Positions 2,271-44,752 are shown, numbered from the stretch's first letter. The stretch is 64,000 bases of DNA from Escherichia coli (GCF_046105845.1 NZ_CP151004.1); one strand, 5' to 3'. The notes: generated by a model from the sequence alone, not told the origin. Program-made: numbers and translations.

Positions 2271-2289
2271 TTCATTCTTAACTCTCACG

Positions 2290-2320
2290 CTTACCCTGAA
2301 TATTCAGGGTAAGCGGTTTT
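2290..2320 (+). terminator. Rho-independent terminator after maeB
   Basis: Inverted repeat cttaccctg..cagggtaag followed by cggtttt, 20 nt after maeB stop. Confidence 0.75.
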
Positions 2321-2562
2321 CCTGAAATATATTAGCAAAGTTTATTACTGAGTTTGCGAATAATAAAAAAAGCAGTATATAAATTATCTCGATATTATTT
2401 TATTTATATTCATGCCTCGCATATGAAAGTTTATTCATAACAGTAAATATCTCTCCATTCTTAGTGATCTACCTCACCTTTTAAACGCGCTTGCCGAATT
2501 TTGTTATTTACTCTGACGAAAAATTGTCACGATACACGAAAGTTTTTCACAGGCGGCGACTC
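2321..2562 (+). promoter_or_regulatory. AT-rich upstream region of the eut operon (expected main eut promoter / EutR-responsive region)
   Basis: About 240 bp of strongly AT-rich non-coding sequence directly upstream of eutS; exact -35/-10 and EutR site not resolved by eye. Confidence 0.4.
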
Positions 2563-2898
2563 ATGGATAAAGAACGCATCATTCAGGAATTTGTGCCCGG
2601 TAAACAGGTCACACTGGCGCATCTCATCGCGCATCCCGGCGAGGAACTGGCGAAGAAAATCGGCGTTCCTGATGCGGGCGCAATCGGCATTATGACGCTA
2701 ACTCCCGGCGAAACGGCGATGATCGCCGGTGATTTAGCACTAAAAGCCGCCGATGTGCATATCGGTTTTCTCGACCGTTTTAGCGGCGCGTTGGTGATTT
2801 ATGGCTCGGTGGGTGCAGTAGAAGAAGCGTTATCACAAACCGTCAGCGGTTTAGGGCGTTTATTAAATTATACGCTTTGTGAAATGACCAAAAGTTAA
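2563..2898 (+). CDS. eutS: Ethanolamine-utilisation microcompartment shell protein EutS (BMC domain)
   Basis: 111-aa translation [29 protein letters not shown]..; first gene of eut cluster; upstream in-frame Met of ORF track (2491) rejected. Confidence 0.92.
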
Positions 2899-2910
2899 TA
2901 CGAGGCATTC

Positions 2911-3390
2911 ATGAAACGAATTGCGTTTGTGGGTACCGTCGGGGCAGGAAAAACAACGTTATTTAATGCGTTGCAGGGAGATTATACCCTCGCCAGAAAA
3001 ACGCAGGCCGTAGAATTTAATGATAAGGGCGATATTGATACGCCGGGTGAATATTTTAGCCATCCCCGCTGGTATCACGCCTTAATTACCACGCTACAGG
3101 ATGTGGACATGCTGATCTATGTCCATGGCGCAAATGACCCGGAAAGCCGATTGCCTGCCGGGTTGCTGGATATTGGCGTCAGCAAACGGCAAATCGCCAT
3201 CATCAGTAAAACGGACATGCCGGATGCTGACGTCGCCGCAACGCGAAAGTTATTGCTTGAGACGGGCTTCGAGGAGCCGATTTTCGAGCTAAACAGCCAC
3301 GACCCGCAAAGCGTGCAGCAACTGGTGGATTATCTGGCATCTCTCACCAAACAGGAGGAAGCAGGTGAAAAAACTCATCACAGCGAATGA
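2911..3390 (+). CDS. eutP: Ethanolamine utilisation protein EutP (P-loop NTPase)
   Basis: 159 aa, Walker A motif GTVGAGKTT near N-terminus; position between eutS and eutQ. Confidence 0.92.
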   Translation: MKRIAFVGTVGAGKTTLFNALQGDYTLARKTQAVEFNDKGDIDTPGEYFSHPRWYHALITTLQDVDMLIYVHGANDPESRLPAGLLDIGVSKRQIAIISKTDMPDADVAATRKLLLETGFEEPIFELNSHDPQSVQQLVDYLASLTKQEEAGEKTHHSE

Positions 3391-4066
3391 TATTCGTGAA
3401 GCACACGCGCGCGGCGAACAGGCAATGTCCGTGGTTCTGCGCGCCAGCATTATTACCCCGGAAGCCCGTGAAGTGGCAGATCTACTGGGTTTTACCATCA
3501 CTGAATGTGATGAATCGACCCCGGTAACGGCGTCCGTTCCCGCCAGCGTGCCAGCCGATAAAACCGAAAGCCAGCGCATCCGCGAAACCATCATCGCCCA
3601 GCTACCGGAAGGCCAGTTTACCGAAAGCCTGGTCGCGCAGCTGATGGAAAAAGTGATGAAGGAAAAACTGTCGCTGGAGCAGGGTGCAATGCAGCCGAGT
3701 TTCAAATCGGTGACCGGCAAAGGCGGCATCAAAGTTATTGATGGCAGCAGCGTCAAGTTTGGTCGTTTCGACGGCGCACAGCCACACTGCGTCGGATTAA
3801 CGGATCTGGTCACCGGAGACGACGGCAGCAGCATGGCCGCTGGTTTTATGCAGTGGGAGAACGCCTTCTTCCCGTGGACCCTGAACTATGACGAAATCGA
3901 CATGGTACTGGAAGGGGAACTGCACGTTCGCCACGAAGGCGAAACCATGATCGCCAAAGCAGGCGACGTGATGTTTATCCCGAAAGGCTCCAGCATCGAA
4001 TTTGGTACGACATCCAGCGTGAAATTCCTGTATGTCGCCTGGCCGGCTAACTGGCAATCCCTATGA
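3365..4066 (+). CDS. eutQ: Ethanolamine utilisation protein EutQ (cupin-fold)
   Basis: 233 aa; GTG start at 3365 preceded by aggaggaa SD; overlaps eutP 3' end; translation MKKLITANDIREAHARGEQ.. Confidence 0.9.
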   Translation: MKKLITANDIREAHARGEQAMSVVLRASIITPEAREVADLLGFTITECDESTPVTASVPASVPADKTESQRIRETIIAQLPEGQFTESLVAQLMEKVMKEKLSLEQGAMQPSFKSVTGKGGIKVIDGSSVKFGRFDGAQPHCVGLTDLVTGDDGSSMAAGFMQWENAFFPWTLNYDEIDMVLEGELHVRHEGETMIAKAGDVMFIPKGSSIEFGTTSSVKFLYVAWPANWQSL

Positions 4067-4866
4067 AAGATTTCATCACCGAAGCATGGCTAAGAGCGAA
4101 CCATACGCTCAGCGAAGGCGCAGAGATCCATCTCCCTGCGGACAGTCGCCTGACGCCCTCTGCCCGGGAGTTGCTGGAAAGCCGCCATCTGCGCATCAAG
4201 TTTATTGACGAGCAGGGCCGCCTGTTTGTTGACGATGAACAGCAGCAGCCGCAGCCCGTTCATGGGCTGACCAGTAGCGATGAACATCCGCAGGCGTGCT
4301 GCGAACTGTGCCGCCAGCCGGTGGCGAAAAAGCCGGATACGCTGACTCACCTGTCGGCGGAAAAAATGGTTGCCAAAAGCGATCCGCGTCTGGGTTTTCG
4401 TGCGGTTCTCGACAGCACCATTGCGCTGGCAGTGTGGCTGCAAATTGAACTGGCGGAACCGTGGCAGCCGTGGCTGGCGGATATCCGTTCGCGTCTTGGC
4501 AACATTATGCGTGCCGATGCGCTGGGGGAACCGCTGGGCGATCAAGCGATTGTCGGGCTTTCTGACGAAGATCTGCACCGGCTTTCTCATCAGCCGTTGC
4601 GTTATCTTGGTCACGATCATCTGGTGCCGGAAGCCAGCCACGGGCGCGATGCGGCGTTGCTGAATCTGCTACGCACCAAAGTGCGGGAAACCGAAACCGT
4701 AGCGGCGCAGGTGTTTATCACCCGCAGCTTTGAAGTATTACGCCCGGACATCTTGCAGGCGCTGAACCGCCTTTCCAGCACGGTCTACGTGATGATGATC
4801 CTGAGCGTAACGAAGCAGCCGCTAACGGTGAAGCAGATCCAACAACGACTGGGGGAAACGCAATGA
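4063..4866 (+). CDS. eutT: EutT corrinoid adenosyltransferase
   Basis: 267 aa; ATGA start/stop overlap with eutQ; position in eut operon. Confidence 0.9.
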
Positions 4867-5879
4867 TTATTGAACGTTGTCGTGAACTGGCGTTGCGAGC
4901 GCCCGCCACAGTGGTTTTTCCGGATGCGTTAGATCAACGTGTGCTGAAAGCTGCGCAATATTTACATCAACAAGGTCTGGCAACGCCCATTCTGGTCGCC
5001 AATCCGTTTGAACTTCGTCAGTTTGCGCTCAGTCACGGCGTGGCGATGGACGGGCTACAGGTGATAGATCCACATGGCAACCTCGCAATGCGGGAAGAAT
5101 TTGCCCATCGCTGGCTGGCCCGCGCGGGCGAAAAAACGCCGCCGGATGCGCTGGAAAAACTCACCGAACCGCTTATGTTCGCCGCAGCAATGGTCAGCGC
5201 CGGTAAAGCGGATGTCTGTATCGCGGGCAACCTCTCTTCCACGGCGAATGTGCTGCGTGCCGGATTACGCATTATCGGCTTGCAGCCAGGCTGTAAAACG
5301 CTCTCCTCCATTTTCCTGATGCTGCCACAGTACAGTGGCCCCGCATTGGGCTTTGCCGATTGCAGCGTGGTGCCACAGCCGACGGCGGCGCAGTTGGCGG
5401 ATATCGCGCTTGCCAGCGCCGAAACCTGGCGCGCCATCACCGGAGAAGAGCCGCGCGTGGCGATGTTGTCGTTTTCCAGTAACGGCAGCGCCCGTCACCC
5501 CTGCGTTGCCAATGTCCAGCAGGCGACAGAAATCGTCCGTGAGCGCGCGCCGCAGTTGGTAGTCGATGGCGAGTTGCAGTTTGACGCCGCCTTCGTGCCG
5601 GAAGTGGCGGCGCAAAAAGCGCCTGCCAGCCCGCTACAAGGCAAGGCCAATGTGATGGTTTTTCCGTCGCTGGAAGCCGGAAATATTGGCTACAAAATCG
5701 CACAACGACTCGGCGGATATCGTGCCGTCGGGCCATTGATACAAGGACTTGCCGCGCCGATGCACGATCTCTCTCGTGGTTGTAGCGTGCAGGAAATTAT
5801 CGAGCTGGCGCTGGTGGCAGCTGTGCCGCGTCAGACAGAAGTAAACCGTGAAAGCAGTTTACAAACACTGGTTGAATGA
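4863..5879 (+). CDS. eutD: EutD phosphotransacetylase (Pta family)
   Basis: 338 aa Pta-like translation; ATGA overlap with eutT. Confidence 0.92.
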
Positions 5880-5917
5880 ACGGTCCCGTTCTGGACCCTG
5901 ATAAAGAGGAAAGCACA

Positions 5918-6211
5918 ATGGAAGCATTAGGAATGATCGAAACCCGGGGCCTGGTTGCACTGATTGAGGCTTCTGACGCGATGGTTAAAGCTGCGCGCGT
6001 CAAGCTGGTTGGTGTTAAGCAGATTGGCGGCGGCCTGTGTACTGCCATGGTTCGTGGTGATGTTGCAGCCTGTAAAGCCGCGACCGACGCAGGTGCTGCA
6101 GCGGCACAGCGTATCGGCGAGCTGGTATCTGTACACGTTATCCCGCGTCCGCACGGCGACCTGGAAGAAGTCTTCCCGATCGGCCTGAAAGGCGATAGCA
6201 GCAACCTGTAA
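5918..6211 (+). CDS. eutM: EutM major microcompartment shell protein (BMC-H)
   Basis: 97 aa [28 protein letters not shown]..; SD aaagagga 8 nt upstream; ORF-track N-terminal extension (5876) rejected. Confidence 0.93.
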
Positions 6212-6317
6212 TCACCCTGTGTGACGTCGATTCGGGCGTCACGCTCTCTCCTTTTTCAGTTTACCTTCCGCGGAGGGTAGGGGGAGCTTTTACCTGAAAT
6301 ACGCCACGGAGGCGGGT

Positions 6318-6605
6318 ATGAAACTGGCAGTCGTCACTGGACAAATTGTTTGTACCGTACGCCATCACGGACTGGCGCATGACAAATTGCTGATGGTGGA
6401 AATGATTGATCCACAAGGTAATCCTGACGGGCAATGTGCCGTCGCCATCGACAATATTGGCGCGGGAACCGGGGAGTGGGTGTTGCTGGTGAGTGGCAGT
6501 TCTGCCCGCCAGGCGCATAAAAGCGAAACGTCACCGGTCGATCTGTGCGTGATTGGCATCGTCGATGAGGTGGTGTCTGGCGGTCAGGTAATTTTCCACA
6601 AATAA
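6318..6605 (+). CDS. eutN: EutN microcompartment vertex protein (BMC-P)
   Basis: 95 aa MKLAVVTGQIVCTVRHHGL..; follows eutM. Confidence 0.92.
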   Translation: MKLAVVTGQIVCTVRHHGLAHDKLLMVEMIDPQGNPDGQCAVAIDNIGAGTGEWVLLVSGSSARQAHKSETSPVDLCVIGIVDEVVSGGQVIFHK

Positions 6606-6616
6606 GGCAGAACATC

Positions 6617-8020
6617 ATGAATCAACAGGATATTGAACAGGTGGTGAAAGCGGTACTGCTGAAAATGCAAAGCAGTGACACGCCGCCCGCCGCCGTTCAT
6701 GAGATAGGCGTTTTCGCGTCCCTGGATGACGCCGTTGCGGCAGCCAAAATTGCCCAGCAAGGGTTAAAGAGCGTGGCAATGCGCCAGTTAGCCATTGCTG
6801 CCATTCGTGAAGCAGGCGAAAAACACGCCAGAGATTTAGCGGAACTTGCCGTCAGTGAAACCGGCATGGGCCGCATCGAAGATAAATTTGCCAAAAACGT
6901 CGCTCAGGCGCGCGGCACACCGGGCGTTGAGTGCCTCTCTCCGCAGGTGCTGACTGGCGACAACGGCCTGACTTTAATTGAAAACGCGCCCTGGGGCGTG
7001 GTGGCTTCGGTGACGCCTTCCACTAACCCGGCGGCAACCGTCATTAATAACGCCATCAGCCTGATTGCCGCGGGCAACAGCGTCATTTTTGCCCCGCATC
7101 CGGCGGCGAAAAAAGTCTCCCAGCGGGCGATCACGCTGCTCAACCAGGCGATTGTTGCCGCAGGCGGGCCGGAAAACTTACTGGTTACTGTGGCCAATCC
7201 GGATATCGAAACCGCGCAACGTTTGTTCAAGTTCCCGGGTATCGGCCTGCTGGTGGTGACCGGCGGCGAAGCGGTAGTGGAAGCGGCGCGTAAACACACC
7301 AATAAACGTCTGATTGCCGCAGGTGCTGGCAACCCGCCGGTAGTGGTGGATGAAACCGCTGACCTCGCCCGTGCAGCTCAGTCCATCGTCAAAGGCGCGT
7401 CTTTCGATAACAACATCATTTGTGCCGACGAAAAGGTACTGATTGTTGTGGATAGCGTAGCCGATGAACTGATGCGTCTGATGGAAGGCCAGCACGCGGT
7501 GAAACTGACCGCAGAGCAGGCGCAGCAGCTACAACCGGTGTTGCTGAAAAATATCGACGAGCGCGGAAAAGGCACCGTCAGCCGTGACTGGGTTGGTCGT
7601 GATGCGGCGAAAATCGCGGCGGCAATCGGCCTTACAGTTCCGGAACAAACGCGACTGCTGTTTGTAGAAACCACCGCAGAACATCCGTTTGCCGTGACCG
7701 AACTGATGATGCCGGTGCTGCCCGTCGTGCGCGTCGCCAACGTGGCGGATGCCATTGCGCTGGCGGTGAAACTGGAAGGCGGTTGCCACCACACGGCGGC
7801 AATGCACTCGCGCAATATCGAGAACATGAACCAGATGGCGAATGCCATTGATACCAGCATTTTCGTTAAGAACGGACCGTGCATTGCCGGGCTGGGGCTG
7901 GGCGGGGAAGGCTGGACCACCATGACCATCACCACGCCAACCGGTGAAGGGGTAACCAGCGCGCGTACGTTTGTCCGTCTGCGTCGCTGTGTATTAGTCG
8001 ATGCGTTTCGCATTGTTTAA
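6617..8020 (+). CDS. eutE: EutE CoA-acylating acetaldehyde dehydrogenase
   Basis: 467 aa aldehyde-dehydrogenase-like translation with N-terminal BMC-targeting-like helix; operon position. Confidence 0.92.
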   Translation: MNQQDIEQVVKAVLLKMQSSDTPPAAVHEIGVFASLDDAVAAAKIAQQGLKSVAMRQLAIAAIREAGEKHARDLAELAVSETGMGRIEDKFAKNVAQARGTPGVECLSPQVLTGDNGLTLIENAPWGVVASVTPSTNPAATVINNAISLIAAGNSVIFAPHPAAKKVSQRAITLLNQAIVAAGGPENLLVTVANPDIETAQRLFKFPGIGLLVVTGGEAVVEAARKHTNKRLIAAGAGNPPVVVDETADLARAAQSIVKGASFDNNIICADEKVLIVVDSVADELMRLMEGQHAVKLTAEQAQQLQPVLLKNIDERGKGTVSRDWVGRDAAKIAAAIGLTVPEQTRLLFVETTAEHPFAVTELMMPVLPVVRVANVADAIALAVKLEGGCHHTAAMHSRNIENMNQMANAIDTSIFVKNGPCIAGLGLGGEGWTTMTITTPTGEGVTSARTFVRLRRCVLVDAFRIV

Positions 8021-8030
8021 GGAGTAACCG

Positions 8031-8867
8031 ATGGCGCACGACGAACAATGGCTCACCCCACGTCTGCACATAGCGGCAACGCTGTGTAACCAGACGCCTG
8101 CCGCGACGGAATCTCCGCTGTGGCTGGGGGTGGATTTGGGCACCTGCGATGTGGTGTCGATGGTTGTTGACCGCGACGGTCAGCCGGTGGCGGTATGCCT
8201 CGACTGGGCTGATGTGGTCCGCGACGGCATCGTCTGGGATTTCTTCGGTGCGGTCACCATTGTTCGTCGCCATCTCGACACCCTCGAGCAGCAATTCGGT
8301 CGCCGTTTTAGCCATGCGGCGACCTCTTTTCCTCCAGGTACGGACCCGCGTATTTCCATCAACGTGCTGGAGTCTGCCGGGCTGGAAGTGAGCCATGTGC
8401 TGGATGAGCCAACCGCAGTCGCGGATCTGCTGCAACTGGACAACGCCGGTGTAGTGGATATCGGCGGTGGCACTACCGGCATTGCCATCGTGAAAAAGGG
8501 CAAGGTGACGTACTCGGCAGATGAAGCCACCGGCGGACATCACATCTCTCTGACTCTCGCCGGAAATCGTCGTATTTCGCTGGAAGAGGCAGAGCAGTAC
8601 AAGCGCGGTCACGGTGAAGAGATTTGGCCCGCGGTGAAACCGGTGTACGAAAAAATGGCGGACATTGTTGCCCGGCATATTGAAGGGCAGGGCATTACTG
8701 ATTTATGGCTGGCGGGCGGCTCCTGTATGCAACCGGGCGTGGCGGAACTGTTTTGCAAACAATTCCCGGCGTTACAGGTGCATCTACCGCAGCACAGTTT
8801 GTTTATGACCCCGCTGGCGATCGCCAGTAGCGGGCGAGAGAAAGCGGAGGGGATCTATGCAAAATGA
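8031..8867 (+). CDS. eutJ: EutJ Hsp70/actin-fold chaperone-like protein
   Basis: 278 aa; motifs DLGTCDV, VDIGGGTTGIA typical of actin/Hsp70 ATPase fold. Confidence 0.9.
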   Translation: MAHDEQWLTPRLHIAATLCNQTPAATESPLWLGVDLGTCDVVSMVVDRDGQPVAVCLDWADVVRDGIVWDFFGAVTIVRRHLDTLEQQFGRRFSHAATSFPPGTDPRISINVLESAGLEVSHVLDEPTAVADLLQLDNAGVVDIGGGTTGIAIVKKGKVTYSADEATGGHHISLTLAGNRRISLEEAEQYKRGHGEEIWPAVKPVYEKMADIVARHIEGQGITDLWLAGGSCMQPGVAELFCKQFPALQVHLPQHSLFMTPLAIASSGREKAEGIYAK

Positions 8868-10044
8868 ATTGCAGACCGCGCTCTTTCAGGCGTTCGATAC
8901 CCTGAATCTGCAACGGGTAAAAACATTTAGCGTTCCACCGGTGACGCTTTGCGGTCCGGGCGCGATGAGCAGTTGCGGGCAGCAAGCGCAAACGCGTGGG
9001 CTGAAACATCTGTTCGTGATGGCAGACAGCTTTTTGCATCAGGCGGGGATGACCGCCGGGCTGACGCGTAGCCTGGCCGTTAAAGGTATCGCCATGACGC
9101 TCTGGCCATGTCTGGTGGGCGAACCGTGCATCACCGACGTGTGTGCAGCCGTGGCGCAGTTGCGTGAATCGGGTTGCGATGGGGTGATCGCGTTTGGTGG
9201 TGGCTCGGTGCTGGATGCGGCAAAAGCCGTGGCGTTGCTGGTGACGAATCCCGATAGCACGCTGGCAGAAATGTCAGAAACCAGCATTCTGCAACCGCGC
9301 CTGCCGTTGATTGCCATTCCAACGACCGCCGGAACCGGCTCTGAAACCACCAACGTAACGGTGATTATCGACGCTGTGAGCGGGCGCAAGCAGGTGTTAG
9401 CCCACGCCTCGCTGATGCCGGATGTGGCGATTCTCGACGCTGCGCTGACCGAAGGCGTGCCGTCGCATGTCACGGCGATGACTGGCATTGATGCGTTAAC
9501 CCATGCTATTGAAGCGTACAGCGCGCTGAACGCGACACCGTTTACCGACAGCCTGGCGATTGGCGCAATCGCGATGATTGGTAAATCACTGCCGAAAGCG
9601 GTGGGCTACGGTCATGACCTTGCCGCGCGCGAGAGCATGTTGCTGGCTTCATGCATGGCGGGAATGGCGTTTTCCAGTGCGGGGCTTGGGTTATGCCACG
9701 CGATGGCGCATCAGCCGGGGGCGGCGCTGCATATTCCGCACGGTCTGGCGAACGCCATGTTGCTGCCAACGGTGATGGAATTTAACCGGATGGTTTGTCG
9801 TGAACGCTTTAGTCAGATTGGTCGGGCGCTGCGAACTAAAAAATCCGACGATCGTGACGCTATTAACGCGGTAAGTGAGCTGATTGCGGAAGTCGGGATT
9901 GGTAAACGACTGGGCGATATTGGTGCGACATCTGCGCATTACGGCGCATGGGCGCAGGCCGCGCTGGAAGATATTTGTCTGCGCAGCAACCCGCGTACCG
10001 CCAGCCTGGAGCAGATTATTGGTCTGTATGCTGCGGCGCAATAA
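8857..10044 (+). CDS. eutG: EutG iron-containing alcohol dehydrogenase
   Basis: 395 aa Fe-ADH-like translation; overlaps eutJ 3' end by 11 nt. Confidence 0.92.
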   Translation: MQNELQTALFQAFDTLNLQRVKTFSVPPVTLCGPGAMSSCGQQAQTRGLKHLFVMADSFLHQAGMTAGLTRSLAVKGIAMTLWPCLVGEPCITDVCAAVAQLRESGCDGVIAFGGGSVLDAAKAVALLVTNPDSTLAEMSETSILQPRLPLIAIPTTAGTGSETTNVTVIIDAVSGRKQVLAHASLMPDVAILDAALTEGVPSHVTAMTGIDALTHAIEAYSALNATPFTDSLAIGAIAMIGKSLPKAVGYGHDLAARESMLLASCMAGMAFSSAGLGLCHAMAHQPGAALHIPHGLANAMLLPTVMEFNRMVCRERFSQIGRALRTKKSDDRDAINAVSELIAEVGIGKRLGDIGATSAHYGAWAQAALEDICLRSNPRTASLEQIIGLYAAAQ

Positions 10045-10057
10045 AAGTGTACGGACA

Positions 10058-10160
10058 GTCCCCTCGCCCCTTTGGGGAGAGGGTTAGGGTGAGGGGAACA
10101 GAGTCGCGCCGGTGCAAACAATTACCCTCACCCCGGCCCCTCGGCTTCCAGAGTGAGGGA
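10058..10160. repeat. GC-rich palindromic intergenic repeat cluster (REP/BIME-like) between eutG and eutH
   Basis: cccctcgcccctttggggagagggttagggtgagggg ... ccctcaccccggcccctcgg; imperfect inverted repeats flanking a short spacer. Confidence 0.6.
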
Positions 10161-10213
10161 AAAACCCACTTTCAGCATTGGCAATAAATAACAACTAACA
10201 GGGAGTAAAGGTG

Positions 10214-11440
10214 ATGGGAATTAACGAAATCATCATGTACATCATGATGTTCTTTATGCTGATAGCTGCCGTAGACAGGATCCTGTCGCAGTTCGGTGGT
10301 TCTGCTCGTTTCCTCGGTAAGTTCGGTAAAAGTATCGAAGGATCAGGCGGGCAGTTTGAAGAAGGCTTTATGGCAATGGGCGCTCTGGGCCTGGCGATGG
10401 TCGGTATGACCGCGCTGGCACCGGTACTGGCTCACGTACTCGGGCCGGTAATTATCCCGGTTTACGAAATGCTCGGTGCAAACCCGTCAATGTTCGCCGG
10501 AACACTGCTGGCGTGCGATATGGGCGGGTTCTTCCTCGCCAAAGAGCTGGCGGGCGGCGACGTAGCAGCGTGGCTATACTCTGGGTTAATTCTCGGGTCG
10601 ATGATGGGGCCAACGATTGTGTTTTCCATTCCGGTGGCGCTCGGCATTATCGAACCTTCTGACCGTCGTTATCTGGCGCTCGGCGTGCTGGCGGGCATTG
10701 TGACCATTCCGATTGGCTGTATTGCTGGTGGTCTGGTTGCTATGTACTCCGGTGTGCAGATCAACGGTCAGCCGGTGGAATTCACCTTTGCGCTGATCCT
10801 GATGAACATGATCCCGGTACTTATCGTTGCGGTGCTGGTGGCGCTGGGGCTGAAATTCATCCCGGAAAAAATGATCAACGGCTTCCAGATCTTCGCCAAA
10901 TTCCTCGTTGCATTGATCACCCTCGGTCTTGCTGCCGCGGTAGTGAAATTCCTCCTTGGCTGGGAACTGATCCCCGGTCTGGATCCTATCTTTATGGCCC
11001 CTGGCGATAAACCCGGTGAAGTGATGCGCGCCATTGAAGTTATCGGTTCTATCTCCTGCGTTCTGTTAGGGGCGTACCCGATGGTACTGCTGCTGACTCG
11101 CTGGTTTGAAAAACCGCTGATGAGCGTCGGTAAAGTGCTGAATATGAACAACATCGCGGCAGCTGGCATGGTGGCAACGCTTGCCAACAATATCCCGATG
11201 TTCGGCATGATGAAGCAGATGGATACCCGCGGCAAAGTGATCAACTGTGCCTTCGCCGTTTCCGCTGCTTTCGCCCTGGGTGACCACTTAGGCTTCGCCG
11301 CTGCCAACATGAACGCCATGATTTTCCCGATGATTGTCGGCAAGTTGATCGGCGGCGTAACGGCGATTGGCGTGGCGATGATGCTGGTGCCAAAAGAAGA
11401 CGCGACCGCGGCCAAAACCGAAGTGGAGGCACAATCGTGA
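10214..11440 (+). CDS. eutH: EutH ethanolamine permease
   Basis: 408 aa polytopic membrane protein MGINEIIMYIMMFFMLIAAVD..; ATG at 10214 with ggag SD chosen over GTG at 10211. Confidence 0.9.
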   Translation: MGINEIIMYIMMFFMLIAAVDRILSQFGGSARFLGKFGKSIEGSGGQFEEGFMAMGALGLAMVGMTALAPVLAHVLGPVIIPVYEMLGANPSMFAGTLLACDMGGFFLAKELAGGDVAAWLYSGLILGSMMGPTIVFSIPVALGIIEPSDRRYLALGVLAGIVTIPIGCIAGGLVAMYSGVQINGQPVEFTFALILMNMIPVLIVAVLVALGLKFIPEKMINGFQIFAKFLVALITLGLAAAVVKFLLGWELIPGLDPIFMAPGDKPGEVMRAIEVIGSISCVLLGAYPMVLLLTRWFEKPLMSVGKVLNMNNIAAAGMVATLANNIPMFGMMKQMDTRGKVINCAFAVSAAFALGDHLGFAAANMNAMIFPMIVGKLIGGVTAIGVAMMLVPKEDATAAKTEVEAQS

Positions 11441-12840
11441 ACACTCGCCAGCTACTGAGCGTCGGTATCGATATCGGCACCACCACCACCCAGGTGATCT
11501 TCTCCCACCTGGAGCTGGTTAACCGTGCGGCGGTGTCGCAGGTGCCGCGCTACGAATTCATCAAACGCGAAATTAGCTGGCAAAGCCCGGTGTTCTTTAC
11601 CCCTGTCGATAAACAGGGTGGTTTAAAAGAAGCGGAACTGAAATCGCTGATTTTAGAGCAATATCAGGCTGCGGGCATTGCGCCGGAAAGCGTTGATTCT
11701 GGTGCCATCATCATCACCGGTGAAAGCGCGAAAACCCGCAACGCTCGCCCGGCGGTGATGACGCTCTCCCAGTCGCTGGGCGATTTTGTCGTCGCCAGCG
11801 CCGGGCCGCATCTCGAATCCGTGATCGCCGGTCACGGTGCCGGGGCGCAAACCCTTTCTGAACAACGGCTGTGTCGGGTCCTGAATATCGATATCGGCGG
11901 TGGCACCGCGAACTACGCCCTGTTCGATGCCGGAAAAATCAGCGGCACCGCCTGCCTCAACGTCGGCGGTCGCCTGCTGGAAACCGACAGCCAGGGGCGC
12001 GTGGTTTACGCTCATAAACCGGGGCAGATGATTGTGGATGAGTGCTTCGGTGCAGGCACTGACGCCCGTTCGCTGACCGGCGCGCAGCTGGTGCAGGTTA
12101 CCCGGCGGATGGCAGAACTGATTGTCGAAGTGATTGACGGAACGCTCTCGCCGCTCGCGCAGGCATTGATGCAAACCGGTTTGTTGCCCGCAGGTGTTAC
12201 GCCCGAAATCATTACGCTTTCTGGCGGCGTGGGCGAATGTTATCGCCACCAGCCCGCCGACCCGTTCTGTTTTGCCGATATCGGCCCGCTGCTGGCAACG
12301 GCGCTGCATGACCATCCGAGCCTGCGTGAGATGAACGTGCAGTTTCCGGCGCAAACCGTACGCGCCACGGTGATTGGCGCGGGTGCACATACCCTTTCGC
12401 TCTCTGGCAGCACAATCTGGCTGGAGGGCGTACAACTGCCGCTGCGCAATTTGCCGGTGGCGATCCCGATTGATGAAACGGATCTGGTGAGTGCCTGGCA
12501 ACAAGCGCTAATTCAACTGGATCTTTGCCCCAAAACTGACGCGTACGTGCTGGCGCTTCCCGCCTCGCTGCCTGTGCGTTACGCCGCGGTACTGACGGTC
12601 ATCAACGCGCTGGTCGATTTCGTCGCGCGTTTTCCGAATCCGCATCCCCTGCTGGTGGTGGCCGGGCAGGACTTTGGTAAAGCTCTGGGCATGTTGTTGC
12701 GCCCACAGCTACAACAACTCCCGTTGGCAGTCATTGACGAAGTGATTGTCCGCGCGGGGGACTATATCGACATTGGTACGCCTCTTTTTGGCCGATCGGT
12801 TGTGCCGGTGACGGTGAAATCACTCGCATTTCCTTCCTGA
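11437..12840 (+). CDS. eutA: EutA ethanolamine ammonia-lyase reactivase
   Basis: 467 aa; GTG start overlapping eutH stop; translation ..NTRQLLSVGIDIGTTTTQVIFS.. Confidence 0.9.
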   Translation: MNTRQLLSVGIDIGTTTTQVIFSHLELVNRAAVSQVPRYEFIKREISWQSPVFFTPVDKQGGLKEAELKSLILEQYQAAGIAPESVDSGAIIITGESAKTRNARPAVMTLSQSLGDFVVASAGPHLESVIAGHGAGAQTLSEQRLCRVLNIDIGGGTANYALFDAGKISGTACLNVGGRLLETDSQGRVVYAHKPGQMIVDECFGAGTDARSLTGAQLVQVTRRMAELIVEVIDGTLSPLAQALMQTGLLPAGVTPEIITLSGGVGECYRHQPADPFCFADIGPLLATALHDHPSLREMNVQFPAQTVRATVIGAGAHTLSLSGSTIWLEGVQLPLRNLPVAIPIDETDLVSAWQQALIQLDLCPKTDAYVLALPASLPVRYAAVLTVINALVDFVARFPNPHPLLVVAGQDFGKALGMLLRPQLQQLPLAVIDEVIVRAGDYIDIGTPLFGRSVVPVTVKSLAFPS

Positions 12841-12851
12841 GGGAACGACTT

Positions 12852-14213
12852 ATGAAACTAAAGACCACATTGTTCGGCAATGTATATCAGTTTAAGGATG
12901 TAAAAGAGGTGCTGGCTAAAGCCAACGAACTGCGTTCGGGGGATGTGCTGGCAGGCGTTGCAGCGGCAAGTTCACAGGAGCGCGTGGCGGCAAAGCAGGT
13001 GTTGTCGGAAATGACCGTAGCGGACATCCGCAATAATCCGGTGATTGCCTATGAAGATGACTGCGTGACGCGGCTGATTCAGGACGATGTTAACGAAACG
13101 GCCTACAACCAGATTAAAAACTGGAGCATCAGCGAACTGCGTGAGTATGTGCTAAGCGATGAAACCAGCGTGGACGACATTGCCTTTACCCGCAAAGGGC
13201 TGACCTCGGAAGTGGTCGCGGCGGTAGCGAAGATTTGCTCCAACGCGGACCTGATCTACGGCGCGAAGAAAATGCCGGTGATCAAAAAGGCCAATACCAC
13301 CATCGGTATTCCGGGCACCTTCAGCGCCCGCTTGCAGCCAAACGACACCCGTGACGACGTGCAAAGTATCGCCGCGCAAATCTACGAAGGGCTTTCCTTC
13401 GGGGTGGGCGATGCGGTGATCGGCGTTAACCCGGTGACTGACGACGTGGAAAACTTAAGCCGCGTGTTGGACACCATTTACGGCGTGATCGACAAATTCA
13501 ACATCCCAACTCAGGGCTGCGTGCTGGCGCACGTCACCACCCAGATTGAAGCGATCCGTCGTGGCGCACCAGGCGGGCTGATTTTCCAGAGTATCTGCGG
13601 CAGCGAAAAAGGGCTGAAAGAATTTGGCGTGGAGCTGGCGATGCTCGACGAAGCGCGCGCAGTGGGCGCAGAGTTCAATCGTATCGCCGGGGAAAACTGC
13701 CTCTACTTCGAAACCGGACAAGGTTCGGCGCTGTCTGCTGGCGCTAACTTCGGCGCAGACCAGGTGACGATGGAAGCGCGTAACTACGGGCTGGCGCGTC
13801 ATTACGATCCGTTTATCGTCAACACCGTGGTCGGCTTTATTGGGCCGGAGTATCTCTACAACGACCGCCAGATTATCCGTGCGGGCTTAGAAGATCACTT
13901 TATGGGTAAGCTGAGCGGCATCTCTATGGGCTGTGACTGCTGCTACACCAACCACGCTGACGCTGACCAGAACCTCAACGAAAACCTCATGATCCTGCTC
14001 GCCACCGCAGGCTGCAACTACATCATGGGGATGCCGCTGGGCGATGACATCATGCTCAACTATCAGACCACCGCATTCCACGACACTGCCACTGTGCGTC
14101 AGTTACTCAACCTGCGCCCGTCACCGGAGTTTGAACGCTGGCTGGAAAGCATGGGCATTATGGCAAACGGTCGCCTGACCAAACGGGCGGGCGATCCGTC
14201 ACTGTTCTTCTGA
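12852..14213 (+). CDS. eutB: Ethanolamine ammonia-lyase large subunit EutB
   Basis: 453 aa; begins 11 nt after eutA stop; recognised EutB translation. Confidence 0.95.
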   Translation: MKLKTTLFGNVYQFKDVKEVLAKANELRSGDVLAGVAAASSQERVAAKQVLSEMTVADIRNNPVIAYEDDCVTRLIQDDVNETAYNQIKNWSISELREYVLSDETSVDDIAFTRKGLTSEVVAAVAKICSNADLIYGAKKMPVIKKANTTIGIPGTFSARLQPNDTRDDVQSIAAQIYEGLSFGVGDAVIGVNPVTDDVENLSRVLDTIYGVIDKFNIPTQGCVLAHVTTQIEAIRRGAPGGLIFQSICGSEKGLKEFGVELAMLDEARAVGAEFNRIAGENCLYFETGQGSALSAGANFGADQVTMEARNYGLARHYDPFIVNTVVGFIGPEYLYNDRQIIRAGLEDHFMGKLSGISMGCDCCYTNHADADQNLNENLMILLATAGCNYIMGMPLGDDIMLNYQTTAFHDTATVRQLLNLRPSPEFERWLESMGIMANGRLTKRAGDPSLFF

Positions 14214-14233
14214 TGACGCGGAGATAACACATC

Positions 14234-15118
14234 ATGGATCAAAAACAGATTGAAGAAATTGTACGCAGCGTGATGGCGTCAATGGGACAAGCGGCCCCCG
14301 CGCCGTCAGAAGCAAAGTGCGCCACCACCTGTGCGGCACCGGTGACCTCGGAAAGCTGCGCGCTGGACTTAGGCTCTGCGGAAGCAAAAGCGTGGATTGG
14401 CGTTGAAAACCCGCATCGCGCAGACGTATTAACAGAACTGCGTCGCAGCACCGTGGCCCGCGTTTGTACCGGTCGTGCCGGTCCGCGTCCGCGTACCCAG
14501 GCGTTGCTGCGTTTCCTGGCCGATCACTCTCGTTCGAAAGATACCGTACTGAAAGAAGTGCCGGAAGAGTGGGTGAAAGCGCAGGGCTTGCTGGAAGTCC
14601 GCTCTGAAATTAGCGACAAAAATCTCTACCTGACTCGTCCGGATATGGGCCGCCGCCTGTGTGCAGAAGCTGTTGAAGCCCTGAAAGCACAGTGTGTTGC
14701 TAATCCGGACGTGCAGGTCGTTATTTCTGATGGCCTGTCAACTGATGCGATCACCGTGAACTACGAAGAGATCCTGCCACCGCTGATGGCGGGCCTGAAA
14801 CAGGCCGGGCTGAAAGTCGGTACGCCATTCTTTGTTCGTTATGGTCGCGTGAAGATTGAAGATCAGATCGGTGAGATCCTCGGCGCGAAAGTGGTGATCC
14901 TGCTGGTGGGGGAACGCCCGGGATTAGGGCAGTCAGAAAGTCTCTCCTGCTACGCCGTTTACTCGCCGCGTATGGCAACCACCGTTGAAGCCGATCGCAC
15001 CTGTATCTCTAACATTCACCAGGGCGGCACGCCGCCGGTTGAAGCCGCAGCCGTCATTGTGGATTTGGCGAAACGTATGCTGGAGCAGAAAGCATCCGGC
15101 ATCAACATGACCCGATAA
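14234..15118 (+). CDS. eutC: Ethanolamine ammonia-lyase small subunit EutC
   Basis: 294 aa; follows eutB. Confidence 0.93.
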
Positions 15119-15127
15119 GGAGGCATC

Positions 15128-15787
15128 ATGCCAGCTTTAGATTTGATTCGACCGTCGGTAACCGCCATGCGGGTGATTGCCTCCGTTAACGCCGAATTTG
15201 CGCGTGAACTGAAATTGCCGCCGCATATTCGTAGCCTTGGGCTGATTTCTGCCGACTCCGATGACGTAACCTACATTGCGGCTGACGAAGCGACCAAGCA
15301 GGCGATGGTCGAAGTGGTGTATGGCCGCTCGCTGTATGCGGGAGCTGCACACGGACCGTCACCGACTGCCGGTGAAGTGCTGATTATGCTCGGTGGGCCA
15401 AACCCGGCGGAAGTGCGTGCTGGTCTGGATGCGATGGTTGCGCATATTGAAAATGGCGCGGCTTTCCAGTGGGCTAATGATGCGCAAGATACGGCATTCC
15501 TGGCACATGTAGTTTCGCGTACCGGTTCTTATCTCTCATCAACCGCCGGGATCACGCTTGGCGATCCGATGGCGTATCTGGTGGCACCGCCGCTGGAAGC
15601 GACCTACGGCATTGATGCAGCCCTGAAATCTGCCGACGTACAGCTGGTGACCTATGTCCCGCCGCCGTCTGAAACCAACTACTCGGCAGCATTTTTAACC
15701 GGTAGCCAGGCCGCGTGTAAAGCAGCCTGTAACGCCTTTACCGATGCAGTGCTGGAAATCGCGCGTAATCCAATCCAGCGTGCGTAA
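15128..15787 (+). CDS. eutL: EutL microcompartment shell protein (tandem BMC domain)
   Basis: 219 aa; follows eutC. Confidence 0.92.
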
Positions 15788-15799
15788 CGGAGGTTGCCG

Positions 15800-16300
15800 A
15801 TGATCAATGCACTGGGATTGCTGGAAGTGGACGGCATGGTCGCCGCGATAGATGCAGCTGATGCCATGCTCAAAGCAGCTAACGTTCGTCTGCTCAGTCA
15901 CGAAGTGCTTGACCCTGGTCGCCTAACGCTGGTGGTGGAAGGCGATCTGGCGGCGTGTCGTGCGGCGCTGGACGCAGGTTGTGCTGCCGCGATGCGTACC
16001 GGGCGTGTCATCAGCCGTAAGGAGATCGGTCGGCCAGACGATGACACCCAGTGGCTGGTTACTGGCTTTAACCGCCAGCCGAAGCAACCCGTAAAGGAAC
16101 CCGACGCGCCAGTTATCGTCGCGGAATCTGCTGACGAGTTGTTGGCGCTGTTAACATCAGTACGTCAGGGAATGACGGCAGGAGAAGTGGCAGCCCACTT
16201 TGGCTGGCCGCTCGAAAAAGCCAGAAATGCGCTCGAACAGCTCTTTTCTGCCGGGACGTTACGTAAACGCAGTAGTCGTTATCGTCTCAAGCCCCATTAA
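15800..16300 (+). CDS. eutK: EutK microcompartment shell protein (BMC domain with C-terminal basic extension)
   Basis: 166 aa MINALGLLEVDGMVAAIDAADAMLKAANV..; ATG at 15800 with acggagg SD chosen over upstream TTG. Confidence 0.9.
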   Translation: MINALGLLEVDGMVAAIDAADAMLKAANVRLLSHEVLDPGRLTLVVEGDLAACRAALDAGCAAAMRTGRVISRKEIGRPDDDTQWLVTGFNRQPKQPVKEPDAPVIVAESADELLALLTSVRQGMTAGEVAAHFGWPLEKARNALEQLFSAGTLRKRSSRYRLKPH

Positions 16301-16345
16301 CCTGTCGGAGGTGCCGGGTGTCCTACAACACCCGGCATTAACATC

Positions 16346-17398
16346 ATGAAAAAGACCCGTACAGCCAATTTGCACCATCTTTATCATGAACCCTTACCCG
16401 AAAACCTGAAGCTCACGCCGAAGGTCGAAGTGGATAATGTTCATCAACGACAGACAACGGATGTCTATGAACATGCTTTGACGATTACCGCCTGGCAGCA
16501 GATTTACGATCAGCTGCATCCGGGCAAGTTTCATGGTGAATTTACGGAAATTCTACTCGATGATATTCAGGTTTTTCGTGAATACACCGGTCTGGCGCTG
16601 CGTCAGTCGTGCCTGGTCTGGCCGAACTCGTTCTGGTTTGGCATTCCGGCGACGCGCGGTGAGCAGGGATTTATCGGTTCGCAATGTTTGGGAAGCGCAG
16701 AAATTGCGACGCGCCCTGGCGGCACCGAGTTTGAATTAAGTACGCCGGACGATTACACGATCCTGGGCGTAGTGCTTTCTGAAGATGTCATCACCCGTCA
16801 GGCTAACTTTTTGCATAATCCGGATCGGGTATTACATATGCTGCGTAGCCAGTCGGCGCTGGAAGTGAAAGAACAGCATAAAGCCGCGCTGTGGGGCTTT
16901 GTCCAACAGGCGCTGGCGACATTTTGCGAGAACCCGGAAAATCTTCATCAGCCTGCTGTGCGTAAAGTGCTGGGGGATAATTTGCTAATGGCGATGGGGG
17001 CGATGCTGGAAGAAGCGCAGCCAATGGTGACGGCGGAAAGCATCAGTCATCAGAGTTACCGTAGATTACTTTCCCGCGCCCGTGAATATGTGCTGGAAAA
17101 TATGTCTGAGCCGGTGACGGTGCTGGACTTGTGTAATCAACTGCATGTCAGCCGCCGCACGCTACAAAACGCGTTTCACGCTATTTTAGGCATTGGCCCA
17201 AATGCGTGGCTGAAACGCATTCGCCTGAACGCCGTACGCCGCGAACTGATAAGCCCTTGGTCGCAAAGCACAACGGTAAAAGACGCAGCCATGCAGTGGG
17301 GATTCTGGCATCTGGGGCAATTCGCCACGGATTATCAGCAACTGTTTGCCGAGAAGCCGTCACTGACGCTGCATCAGCGGATGCGGGAATGGGGGTGA
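16346..17398 (+). CDS. eutR: EutR AraC-family transcriptional activator of the eut operon
   Basis: 350 aa with C-terminal AraC-type HTH; last gene of eut cluster. Confidence 0.92.
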
Positions 17399-17403
17399 GG
17401 GAG

Positions 17404-18306
<903 letters not shown>

Positions 18307-44332: not shown

Positions 44333-44664
44333 ATATCGATCTGAGTCGTTTTTTCAACAGGATTTGGAAGGGATGCATTCAGAGACAAACGCTGCTCTTT
44401 CTCCTGCGCTTTTTCTGCCTGCTGTCTTTGCAACTGCGCCAGTTGTGTTTCCAGTAGGGTGATTTGCTGCTGAATCAATTCGGCCTGTTTTTGCTTGTCT
44501 TCAGCACTGCCGCTAGTGTCTGCAATCTCTTTAATTTGTTGAGTGAGTTTGATGATTTGCTGACTTATCCGCGCAATTTGTGAAGCAACATCGCTACCTT
44601 CTGATGCCCTGTTACTACTCTGTGTTTGTATGGAAGGAATTGAAGTTGGAGAGATAGTGGCCAT
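44323..44664 (-). CDS. Hypothetical coiled-coil protein, FlxA-like (flagellar-regulon-type protein of unknown function)
   Basis: 113-aa ORF with GAGG SD 8 nt upstream of ATG; S/T-rich N-terminus then Q/L/K/E-rich predicted coiled coil ([57 protein letters not shown]), C-terminus ..QIDIYI; own sigma-28-like promoter; family assignment from memory, not searched. Confidence 0.6.
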
Positions 44665-44692
44665 TGTTCAGTCCTCGTCACTGTACGAGGTA

Positions 44693-44719
44693 ATATCGGC
44701 AGAAGAACAAGGAACTTGA
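44693..44719 (-). promoter_or_regulatory. Putative sigma-28 (FliA)-dependent promoter of the FlxA-like ORF
   Basis: Minus-strand read TCAAGTTC-N11-GCCGATAT vs FliA consensus TAAAGTTT-N11-GCCGATAA; 28 nt upstream of the ORF start. Confidence 0.5.
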
Positions 44720-44752
44720 GAAGAAAAATCAATCTTACAAACCGCATATAGC

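Follow-up and report, generated by a model that had tools for sequence, protein, structure and literature searches.

Layout and identity of the eut locus

The stretch of Escherichia coli DNA studied here (GCF_046105845.1, NZ_CP151004.1), 64,000 nt in length and hereinafter called the window, carries the genes of the ethanolamine-utilization (eut) microcompartment system between positions 2563 and 17398. Listing and translation of open reading frames (ORFs) across this span recovered 17 of them in succession on the plus strand, in the order eutS-P-Q-T-D-M-N-E-J-G-H-A-B-C-L-K-R and with zero internal stop codons; with curated start sites, the coding density of the locus is 97.0%. A prior sequence-only reading of the window had described a complete, uninterrupted 17-gene eut locus on one strand and had taken it for a known system; our analysis bears out both points, in that the 17 intact ORFs occupy exactly this span and the matches to curated models, solved structures and annotated genomes identify the canonical eut operon. 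Accordingly, we regard it as very probable that this is the canonical enterobacterial (EUT1-type) eut operon of an E. coli strain, present without interruption and, most likely, in working order. Its genes, with their matches to models and structures (the latter by PDB code; BMC, bacterial microcompartment), are:

eutS, 2563-2898, plus strand: BMC-domain minor shell protein, 111 residues; NF012012 over 1-111/111 (247 bits); PF00936; 3i96 over its full length
eutP, 2911-3390, plus strand: EutP/PduV-family acetate kinase, 159 residues; NF012011 over 1-159/159
eutQ, 3365-4066, plus strand: cupin-type acetate kinase, 233 residues, GTG start; NF012001 over 1-233/233; PF06249
eutT, 4063-4866, plus strand: ATP:corrinoid adenosyltransferase, 267 residues; NF011595 over 1-267/267; PF01923
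eutD, 4863-5879, plus strand: phosphotransacetylase, 338 residues; NF007233 and TIGR00651 above cut-off; annotated pta/eutD at the same position in K-12
eutM, 5918-6211, plus strand: major hexameric shell protein, 97 residues; NF012018 over 1-97/97; 3i6p and 3mpw over their full length
eutN, 6318-6605, plus strand: pentameric vertex protein, 95 residues; NF011992 over 1-95/95; PF03319; 2hd3 and 2z9h
eutE, 6617-8020, plus strand: CoA-acylating acetaldehyde dehydrogenase, 467 residues; residues 1-467 against 1-465/465 of NF011927 (735 bits)
eutJ, 8031-8867, plus strand: putative chaperone with a DnaK/actin fold, 278 residues; NF011660 (399 bits)
eutG, 8857-10044, plus strand: iron-dependent alcohol dehydrogenase, 395 residues; NF011998 over 1-395/395 (884 bits)
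eutH, 10214-11440, plus strand: ethanolamine permease, 408 residues; NF011665 over 1-408/408 on ORF residues 2-409; PF04346
eutA, 11437-12840, plus strand: ethanolamine ammonia-lyase reactivating factor, 467 residues, GTG start; NF007991 over 1-467/467 (1067 bits)
eutB, 12852-14213, plus strand: adenosylcobalamin-dependent ethanolamine ammonia-lyase large subunit, 453 residues; NF011649; 3abo over 1-453/453 (1019 bits)
eutC, 14234-15118, plus strand: ethanolamine ammonia-lyase small subunit, 294 residues; NF003971; PF05985
eutL, 15128-15787, plus strand: tandem-BMC pseudohexameric shell protein, 219 residues; NF011934 and TIGR04502 above cut-off; 3gfh and 3i82 over their full length
eutK, 15800-16300, plus strand: shell protein with a BMC domain and a C-terminal helix-turn-helix, 166 residues; NF012010 over 1-166/166; PF00936 and PF16365; 3i71 (C-terminal domain)
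eutR, 16346-17398, plus strand: AraC-family activator, 350 residues, last gene; NF007522 over 1-350/350 (790 bits)

All 17 products match a curated NCBIfam model of an Eut family over the full length, with scores that far exceed the curated cut-offs. Eut-specific models were matched by EutS, P, Q, T, M, N, J, G, H, A, L, K and R, while EutB and EutC matched lyase subunit models, EutD a phosphotransacetylase model and EutE the PRK15398 aldehyde dehydrogenase subfamily. The signature enzyme, comprised of EutB and EutC, is present at full length and above cut-off, as are the downstream enzymes EutE, EutD, EutG, EutP and EutQ; the B12 support proteins EutA and EutT, the permease EutH and EutJ match equivalog models from the first position to the last; and the AraC-family activator gene eutR is the terminal gene of the operon, as an EUT1-type assignment demands. 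Full-length matches to solved E. coli structures were obtained for EutS, EutM, EutN, EutL and EutB, and for the C-terminal domain in the case of EutK. Pfam searches placed the BMC domain (PF00936) in EutS, EutM, EutK (which additionally carries EutK_C) and, as two stretches, in EutL, but assigned EutN to PF03319 (EutN_CcmL). Thus, the five shell proteins that had been proposed from the sequence (EutS, M, N, L and K) are all present, but they are not five paralogues: because the fold family of EutN differs from the BMC family, the set consists of four paralogues and one unrelated vertex protein.

Direct reading of the EutT translation gave H67...C79 C80..C83, in line with HX11CCX2C, which we take to be the characteristic motif of this enzyme. 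Candidate encapsulation peptides are present at the N-termini of EutE (MNQQDIEQVVKAVLLKMQ) and EutC; in the latter, residues 1-31 are the same as in K-12, and the N-terminal peptide of 19 residues is kept. A fusion of EutC(1-20) to green fluorescent protein forms puncta in K-12 W3110 (PMC11334477).

The successive gaps between the genes are 12, -26, -4, -4, 38, 106, 11, 10, -11, 169, -4, 11, 20, 9, 12 and 45 nt, that is, five overlaps (eutP/Q by 26, eutQ/T by 4, eutT/D by 4, eutJ/G by 11 and eutH/A by 4 nt), seven gaps of 9-20 nt and four larger spacers. Such overlapping or near-abutting stop and start codons are what would be expected of a translationally coupled operon. The sequence-only reading had listed ATGA- or TAATG-type junctions at eutQ/T, eutT/D and eutH/A; the first two are indeed ATGA, but the eutH/A overlap reads GTGA because the start codon of eutA is GTG. 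An ATGA overlap at eutD/M arises only if eutM is read as a long ORF of 111 residues. The EutM model NF012018 covers residues 15-111 of that ORF, and the start assigned in K-12 by the NCBI Prokaryotic Genome Annotation Pipeline is that of the same 97-residue protein; the curated start at 5918 leaves a 38-nt gap.

The flanks are as in K-12, with maeB upstream and hemF-amiA downstream:

hemF, 17404-18306, minus strand: convergent with eutR, with amiA beyond it

Only 5 nt separate the eutR stop codon from that of hemF, an arrangement also seen in K-12, which leaves no space for a terminator between the convergent units. On the other side, an apparent truncation of maeB (start at 189 in the ORF list) proved to be an artefact: the window opens 10 nt into the gene, the frame of which stays open from base 3 through base 2270.

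Conservation within E. coli and the empty CPZ-55 site

The RefSeq annotations of both K-12 MG1655 and the best match, strain WP4-S18-ESBL-07, place the genes collinearly with those of the window. Across our panel of 5426 complete RefSeq E. coli genomes, on which all counts below are based, the 15.2-kb eut region was matched in 5425, consistent with its earlier description as a core-genome operon of 17 genes, conserved in each of 47 uropathogenic E. coli (UPEC) isolates (PMC6652756). Compared with annotated E. coli eut operons, the DNA shows 96.6-98.7% identity, with a nucleotide divergence of ~3.4% from K-12.

MG1655 carries the ~6.8 kb CPZ-55 prophage (intZ to yffS) directly after the eutA stop codon, between eutA and eutB. 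The corresponding site of the window is empty, and reads uninterrupted as CTTCCTGAGGGAACGACTT-ATG:

Empty CPZ-55 attachment point, 12833-12840, plus strand: CTTCCTGA at the eutA stop codon

Using a 150-nt probe across the eutA-eutB junction, which was counted as uninterrupted at coverage of at least 80%, we found it so in 4964 of the 5426 genomes; hence, the intact locus is the normal state in E. coli. Apparent insertions of 5-7 kb in three further strains were set aside, as the extra span lies upstream (maeB, tkt), outside eut, and most likely reflects a joined piece of dispersed repeat. The prophage-bearing strain BW25113 shows no eutB induction, no compartments and no growth on ethanolamine (PMC7617246; PMC11334477), growth is regained upon scarless excision of the prophage (PMC11334477), and in K-12 an uninterrupted operon is needed for growth with ethanolamine as the nitrogen source (PMC11334477). 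Strains with intact loci form microcompartments (PMC7617246; PMC6652756), and K-12 W3110 is naturally eut+, with microscopy, proteomics and flux analysis of its Eut compartment already done (PMC11334477). The eut locus of DH1 (DH1Ec104) and the eutA-eutB junction of XL10-Gold likewise appear uninterrupted; together with W3110, they indicate that the CPZ-55 insertion is not universal among K-12 derivatives.

It had been suggested from the sequence that the intact locus makes this strain a better model than K-12 for eut microcompartment biology. This is true only relative to the MG1655/BW25113 lineage, in which all 17 genes are near-identical to those of the window and where MG1655 has the prophage in place of the empty site; given that W3110 and more than 90% of complete E. 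coli genomes are intact, the argument is weak. W3110 and most natural E. coli (EUT1) share with the window the same 17 genes, order, overlaps, spacers and flanks, from which the window differs in having another repeat allele between eutG and eutH and an EutC that lacks Asn32.

Predicted function and divergence from K-12

By analogy with the characterized systems of Salmonella and E. coli, ethanolamine together with adenosylcobalamin (AdoCbl) would cause EutR to activate the promoter P1 upstream of eutS (PMC5821096; PMC11334477), with a weak constitutive promoter, P2, preceding eutR (PMC5821096). As eutR closes the operon, induction would be autocatalytic, feeding back on itself. The predicted shell comprises EutM as the major hexamer, EutL as a trimer, EutS and EutK as minor components and EutN as the pentameric vertex. 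Inside it, EutBC would cleave ethanolamine to acetaldehyde and ammonia; EutE would convert acetaldehyde to acetyl-CoA, EutD would form acetyl-phosphate with recycling of CoA, and EutG would recycle NAD+, with EutP and EutQ acting as acetate kinases. The reactivase EutA and the adenosyltransferase EutT are expected to maintain the cofactor, EutH to import the substrate and EutJ to play a support function. We infer expression, compartment assembly and growth on ethanolamine in the source strain; the sequence holds nothing that speaks against function, and the conserved promoter motifs described below lend indirect support.

Comparison with K-12 supports this prediction. Apart from EutP, at 96.9%, the proteins are 97.9-100% identical in amino-acid sequence to their K-12 counterparts: EutS, EutM, EutN and EutB are wholly identical, and EutE and EutR show 98.3% and 99.1% identity, respectively, the last being identical to EutR of the best-matching strain. 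EutC has 294 residues as against 295 in K-12 through the deletion of Asn32, and is otherwise identical; the deletion falls in the Thr/Cys-rich linker that connects the catalytic domain to the N-terminal targeting peptide. By the Nei-Gojobori method, the operon as a whole displays 418.5 synonymous and 61.5 non-synonymous differences from K-12, giving a ratio of non-synonymous to synonymous rates (dN/dS) of 0.044 overall and of at most 0.15 for any single gene, from which it follows that all 17 genes are under purifying selection.

Certain points weigh against a functional system. E. coli depends on external B12 or cobinamide, and the phenotype cannot be read from the sequence. Further, individual substitutions relative to K-12, such as EutT D160C and EutA C364D, and the loss of N32 in EutC may affect function. 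W3110 failed to grow when ethanolamine was its only source of both carbon and nitrogen (PMC11334477), whereas Nissle 1917 used it as sole carbon source (PMC7617246). An alternative is that the locus is intact in sequence yet phenotypically silent, due to a hidden regulatory or missense defect or to B12 uptake or adenosylation missing elsewhere. The 61.5 non-synonymous differences leave room for such a defect, and the use of ethanolamine as a carbon source does vary among the strains studied. However, the low dN/dS points to continuing purifying selection, EutB, EutM, EutN and EutS are completely and EutR almost completely identical to their K-12 versions, EutR is shared with the best-matching strain, and the promoter-proximal region, i.e., the last ~100 nt before eutS, is identical to that of K-12. 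We hence consider a silent locus improbable, and favor an intact and functional operon.

The eut locus in other genera and the lineage of the strain

A single scan of species-representative genomes with EutH yielded 50 loci, in which the 17 window proteins were placed by tblastn. The order SPQTDMNEJGHABCLKR was found in every locus long enough to display it, with the sole exception of one from Yokenella, the genera with the conserved full order being Escherichia, Citrobacter, Klebsiella, Pseudocitrobacter, Buttiauxella, Morganella, Pluralibacter, Entomohabitans and Intestinirhabdus. In the exception, Yokenella regensburgei (L023), tblastn detected neither eutT nor eutJ in an otherwise collinear locus; its eutM-eutN spacer is only 52 nt long and has hairpin 1 alone (see below). 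Salmonella enterica LT2 has the same 17-gene order, with which two partial Salmonella loci (L044, L047) are collinear, and the same regulatory logic, wherein EutR with ethanolamine and AdoCbl activates P1 and a weak P2 lies before eutR (PMC5821096). It differs in its nucleotide identity of only ~83-84% and, in L047, in a eutM-eutN spacer of repetitive extragenic palindrome (REP)-like sequences without the double hairpin.

The Firmicutes EUT2 loci (Enterococcus, Listeria) have enzymes and shell proteins in common with the window (PMC5821096), but rely for their regulation on the two-component/ANTAR system EutVW and on the EutX small RNA, which contains an AdoCbl riboswitch, and have no EutR (PMC5821096). 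That the window might hold a different microcompartment type resembling eut (pdu, grm or EUT2) could be entertained because shell proteins and aldehyde/alcohol dehydrogenases are common across such types and EutM also scores against carboxysome and Pdu models, but this is already refuted by the full-length matches of EutBC, EutA, EutH and EutR to their own equivalog models, by the DNA identity of 96.6-98.7% to annotated E. coli eut operons, and by our finding neither EutV/EutW with profile models nor an AdoCbl riboswitch with Rfam in the locus.

With regard to its origin, the first 20 kb of the window shows 98.6% nucleotide identity to WP4-S18-ESBL-07, 96.6% to K-12, 92.6-94.4% to other Escherichia species representatives and ~83-84% to other genera. 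The closest complete RefSeq E. coli genome reaches 98.7% over the eut region and 98.3% over the next 24.6 kb, as against ~96.6-97% for typical strains. On these identities the source falls within E. coli, broadly defined, and appears to belong to an under-sampled lineage. Among the best flank matches are records of sequence type ST2747, which we take to be 'cryptic clade I'. A metagenome-assembled genome labeled 'Citrobacter sp.' (DXKH01000140.1; L003) has a eut segment 97.3% identical to the window and an EutH that is 100% identical; as true Citrobacter loci are at ~83%, this suggests a mislabeled or chimeric bin.

Further along the window, at 44334-44742, the yfeN-xapA-xapB-xapR block (~4.6 kb in GMF054 and K-12) is absent, replaced by ~410 nt that encode, on the minus strand, a protein of the FlxA-like family. 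This xap-less arrangement is common to 1306 of the 5426 E. coli genomes, including O157:H7.

Conserved elements upstream of eutS

A scan with a strict sigma-70 consensus found no promoter upstream of eutS, its only match lying inside eutN. As an activator-dependent promoter is expected to miss this consensus, the scan is uninformative, and we used phylogenetic footprinting instead. Alignment of the DNA upstream of eutS in 42 loci, drawn from many genera, revealed three conserved blocks in otherwise divergent DNA, which in the window lie downstream of an intrinsic terminator:

maeB intrinsic terminator, 2288-2315, plus strand: 12-bp stem followed by GTTTT, detected by a terminator scan
CRP-like site, 2461-2482, plus strand: TTAGTGATCTACCTCACCTTTT, with the core GTGA-N6-TCAC at 2464-2477
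Invariant 17-mer, 2491-2507, plus strand: TTGCCGAATTTTGTTAT, directly upstream of a weak -35
Candidate extended -10 of P1, 2525-2533, plus strand: TG-T-CACGAT

The terminator, which is kept in K-12 and the best match, is strong and separates maeB from the eut promoter region, insulating the operon. The first block, TTAGTGATCTACCTCACCTTTT, contains GTGATC-N5-TCA, in which GTGATC and TCA are invariant across the 42 regions. From its likeness to the TGTGA-N6-TCACA consensus, we infer it to be a site for the cyclic AMP (cAMP) receptor protein (CRP), which suggests co-activation of the operon by cAMP-CRP; Roof and Roth reportedly described a dependence on cAMP-CRP in 1992, and the other literature that we searched is silent on both CRP control and the mapping of EutR sites. 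The second block has the pattern TTGCCGA-N2-TTTGTTAT, with both parts at least 95% conserved across the 42 loci, and is a plausible candidate for the operator of the AraC-type EutR. The EutR of enterohaemorrhagic E. coli (EHEC) binds the P1 region in electrophoretic mobility-shift assays, as reviewed in PMC5821096. The third block has the footprint pattern TG-N-CACGAT, in the hexamer of which the A and the final AT are invariant, and is plausibly the extended -10 of the main promoter P1.

A double hairpin between eutM and eutN

The 106-nt spacer between eutM and eutN (6212-6317) is predicted to fold into two stem-loops followed by a conserved motif:

Hairpin 1, 6219-6244, plus strand: GTGTGACGTCG-ATTCGG-GCGTCACGC, then a T-rich run
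Hairpin 2, 6246-6286, plus strand: outer stem CTCTCC/GGGGGAG, inner stem ACCTTC/GGAGGGT
Conserved motif, 6288-6300, plus strand: TTTTACCTGAAAT directly after hairpin 2, near-invariant in the alignment and followed by the eutN ribosome-binding site

The element is single-copy and at least 95% conserved in 5405 of the 5426 E. coli genomes. Among 46 spacers from other loci, 34 have the two-hairpin layout and the remaining 12 (Klebsiella, Salmonella, Pseudocitrobacter and some Citrobacter) have REP-like palindromes instead; all 46 have a predicted stem-loop within ~10 nt of the eutM stop codon. As the fold energy of the spacer is only modestly unusual (z = -1.98), the case for a structured RNA rests on covariation. 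In an alignment of 20 distinct spacers from eight genera, with slid pairing partners and 500 shuffles as controls, the two core helices are paired in 98.4% of the cells (22-59% with the partners slid), compensatory changes occur in six of 13 pairs (0-2 when slid), and none of the 500 shuffles reached the observed covariation score. The inner stem of hairpin 2 by itself shows compensatory changes at four of its six pairs.

Searches of Rfam gave no match in the eut region at the gathering threshold and none within 5900-6650 at E-values up to 10, and the searchable literature yielded no match combining eutM and eutN with hairpin or terminator terms. A dispersed-repeat origin of hairpin 1 was rejected, as it occurs at one place per genome and has a single match in the window; likewise, dual hairpins of the ANTAR type were rejected, as the loops range from 5 to 27 nt without the A/G hexaloop signature and the locus has no ANTAR regulator. 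An intrinsic (Rho-independent) terminator would have a G+C-rich stem-loop with a U tract immediately behind it. Hairpin 1 passes a simple terminator scan; the U tracts of E. coli are short and interrupted (UCUCUCCUUUUU; CUUUUAC), and Morganella has U7 after hairpin 2.

Proteomics of W3110 gave relative abundances of 96 for EutM, 1 for EutN, 27 for EutE, 37 for EutB, 24 for EutC and 39 for EutL (PMC11334477), placing EutM ~100-fold above EutN and ~2.5- to 4-fold above EutE, EutB, EutC and EutL (PMC11334477). We tentatively propose that the double hairpin with TTTTACCTGAA (6219-6300) is an undescribed intra-operon RNA device, a possibility that we rate as somewhat less than even. Such a device may be a leaky terminator, a stabilizer of the 3′ end of the eutS-to-eutM transcript or a throttle on eutN translation. 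With a leaky terminator or a stabilizer of the upstream mRNA, levels of EutE, EutB, EutC and EutL 2.5- to 4-fold below that of EutM could be explained, but neither can by itself account for the 100-fold drop from EutM to EutN. The proposal has potential parallels in operon-internal terminators and REP elements that set protein ratios (e.g., in ATP-binding cassette transporter operons; PMC9045158), in that a stable stem-loop directly follows the gene for a product needed in excess, which would here be eutM. If the proposal is right, an RNA device after eutM would help to set the ratios of the shell proteins.

The variable eutG-eutH spacer

The spacer between eutG and eutH (10045-10213; 169 nt) holds a pair of repeats:

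Dispersed G-rich palindromic repeat pair, 10060-10159, plus strand: copies at 10060-10096 and 10125-10159

The repeat presumably resembles the 'Box C' class, and the median number of places per genome at which parts of this allele occur is six. The 169-nt allele of the window is a minority form, present at a coverage of at least 80% in only 370 of the 5426 E. coli genomes; at this position K-12 has 216 nt with two REP pairs, and among genera the spacer can be as short as 27 nt or as long as 578 nt. The spacer is a hot spot for extragenic repeats. Its fold stability is ordinary (z = -0.81).

Significance

The operon itself is a known system, and strains normally carry it intact. With more than 90% of complete E. 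coli genomes intact and model strains already at hand (W3110, Nissle 1917, UPEC U1 and EHEC), one more copy adds nothing new. The practical yield of this work is a verified gene map with corrected start codons and the exact empty CPZ-55 site, along with three candidate regulatory features: the motifs at the promoter, the double hairpin between eutM and eutN, and the repeat-bearing, variable spacer between eutG and eutH. Of these, only the eutM-eutN RNA structure and the promoter footprint may be new, and we offer both as leads rather than findings. The eut operon matters for the competitiveness of E. coli in the gut and the urinary tract, and as a chassis for engineered microcompartments; in this context, the candidate features could help explain how very unequal amounts of shell and enzyme proteins are made from one transcript.

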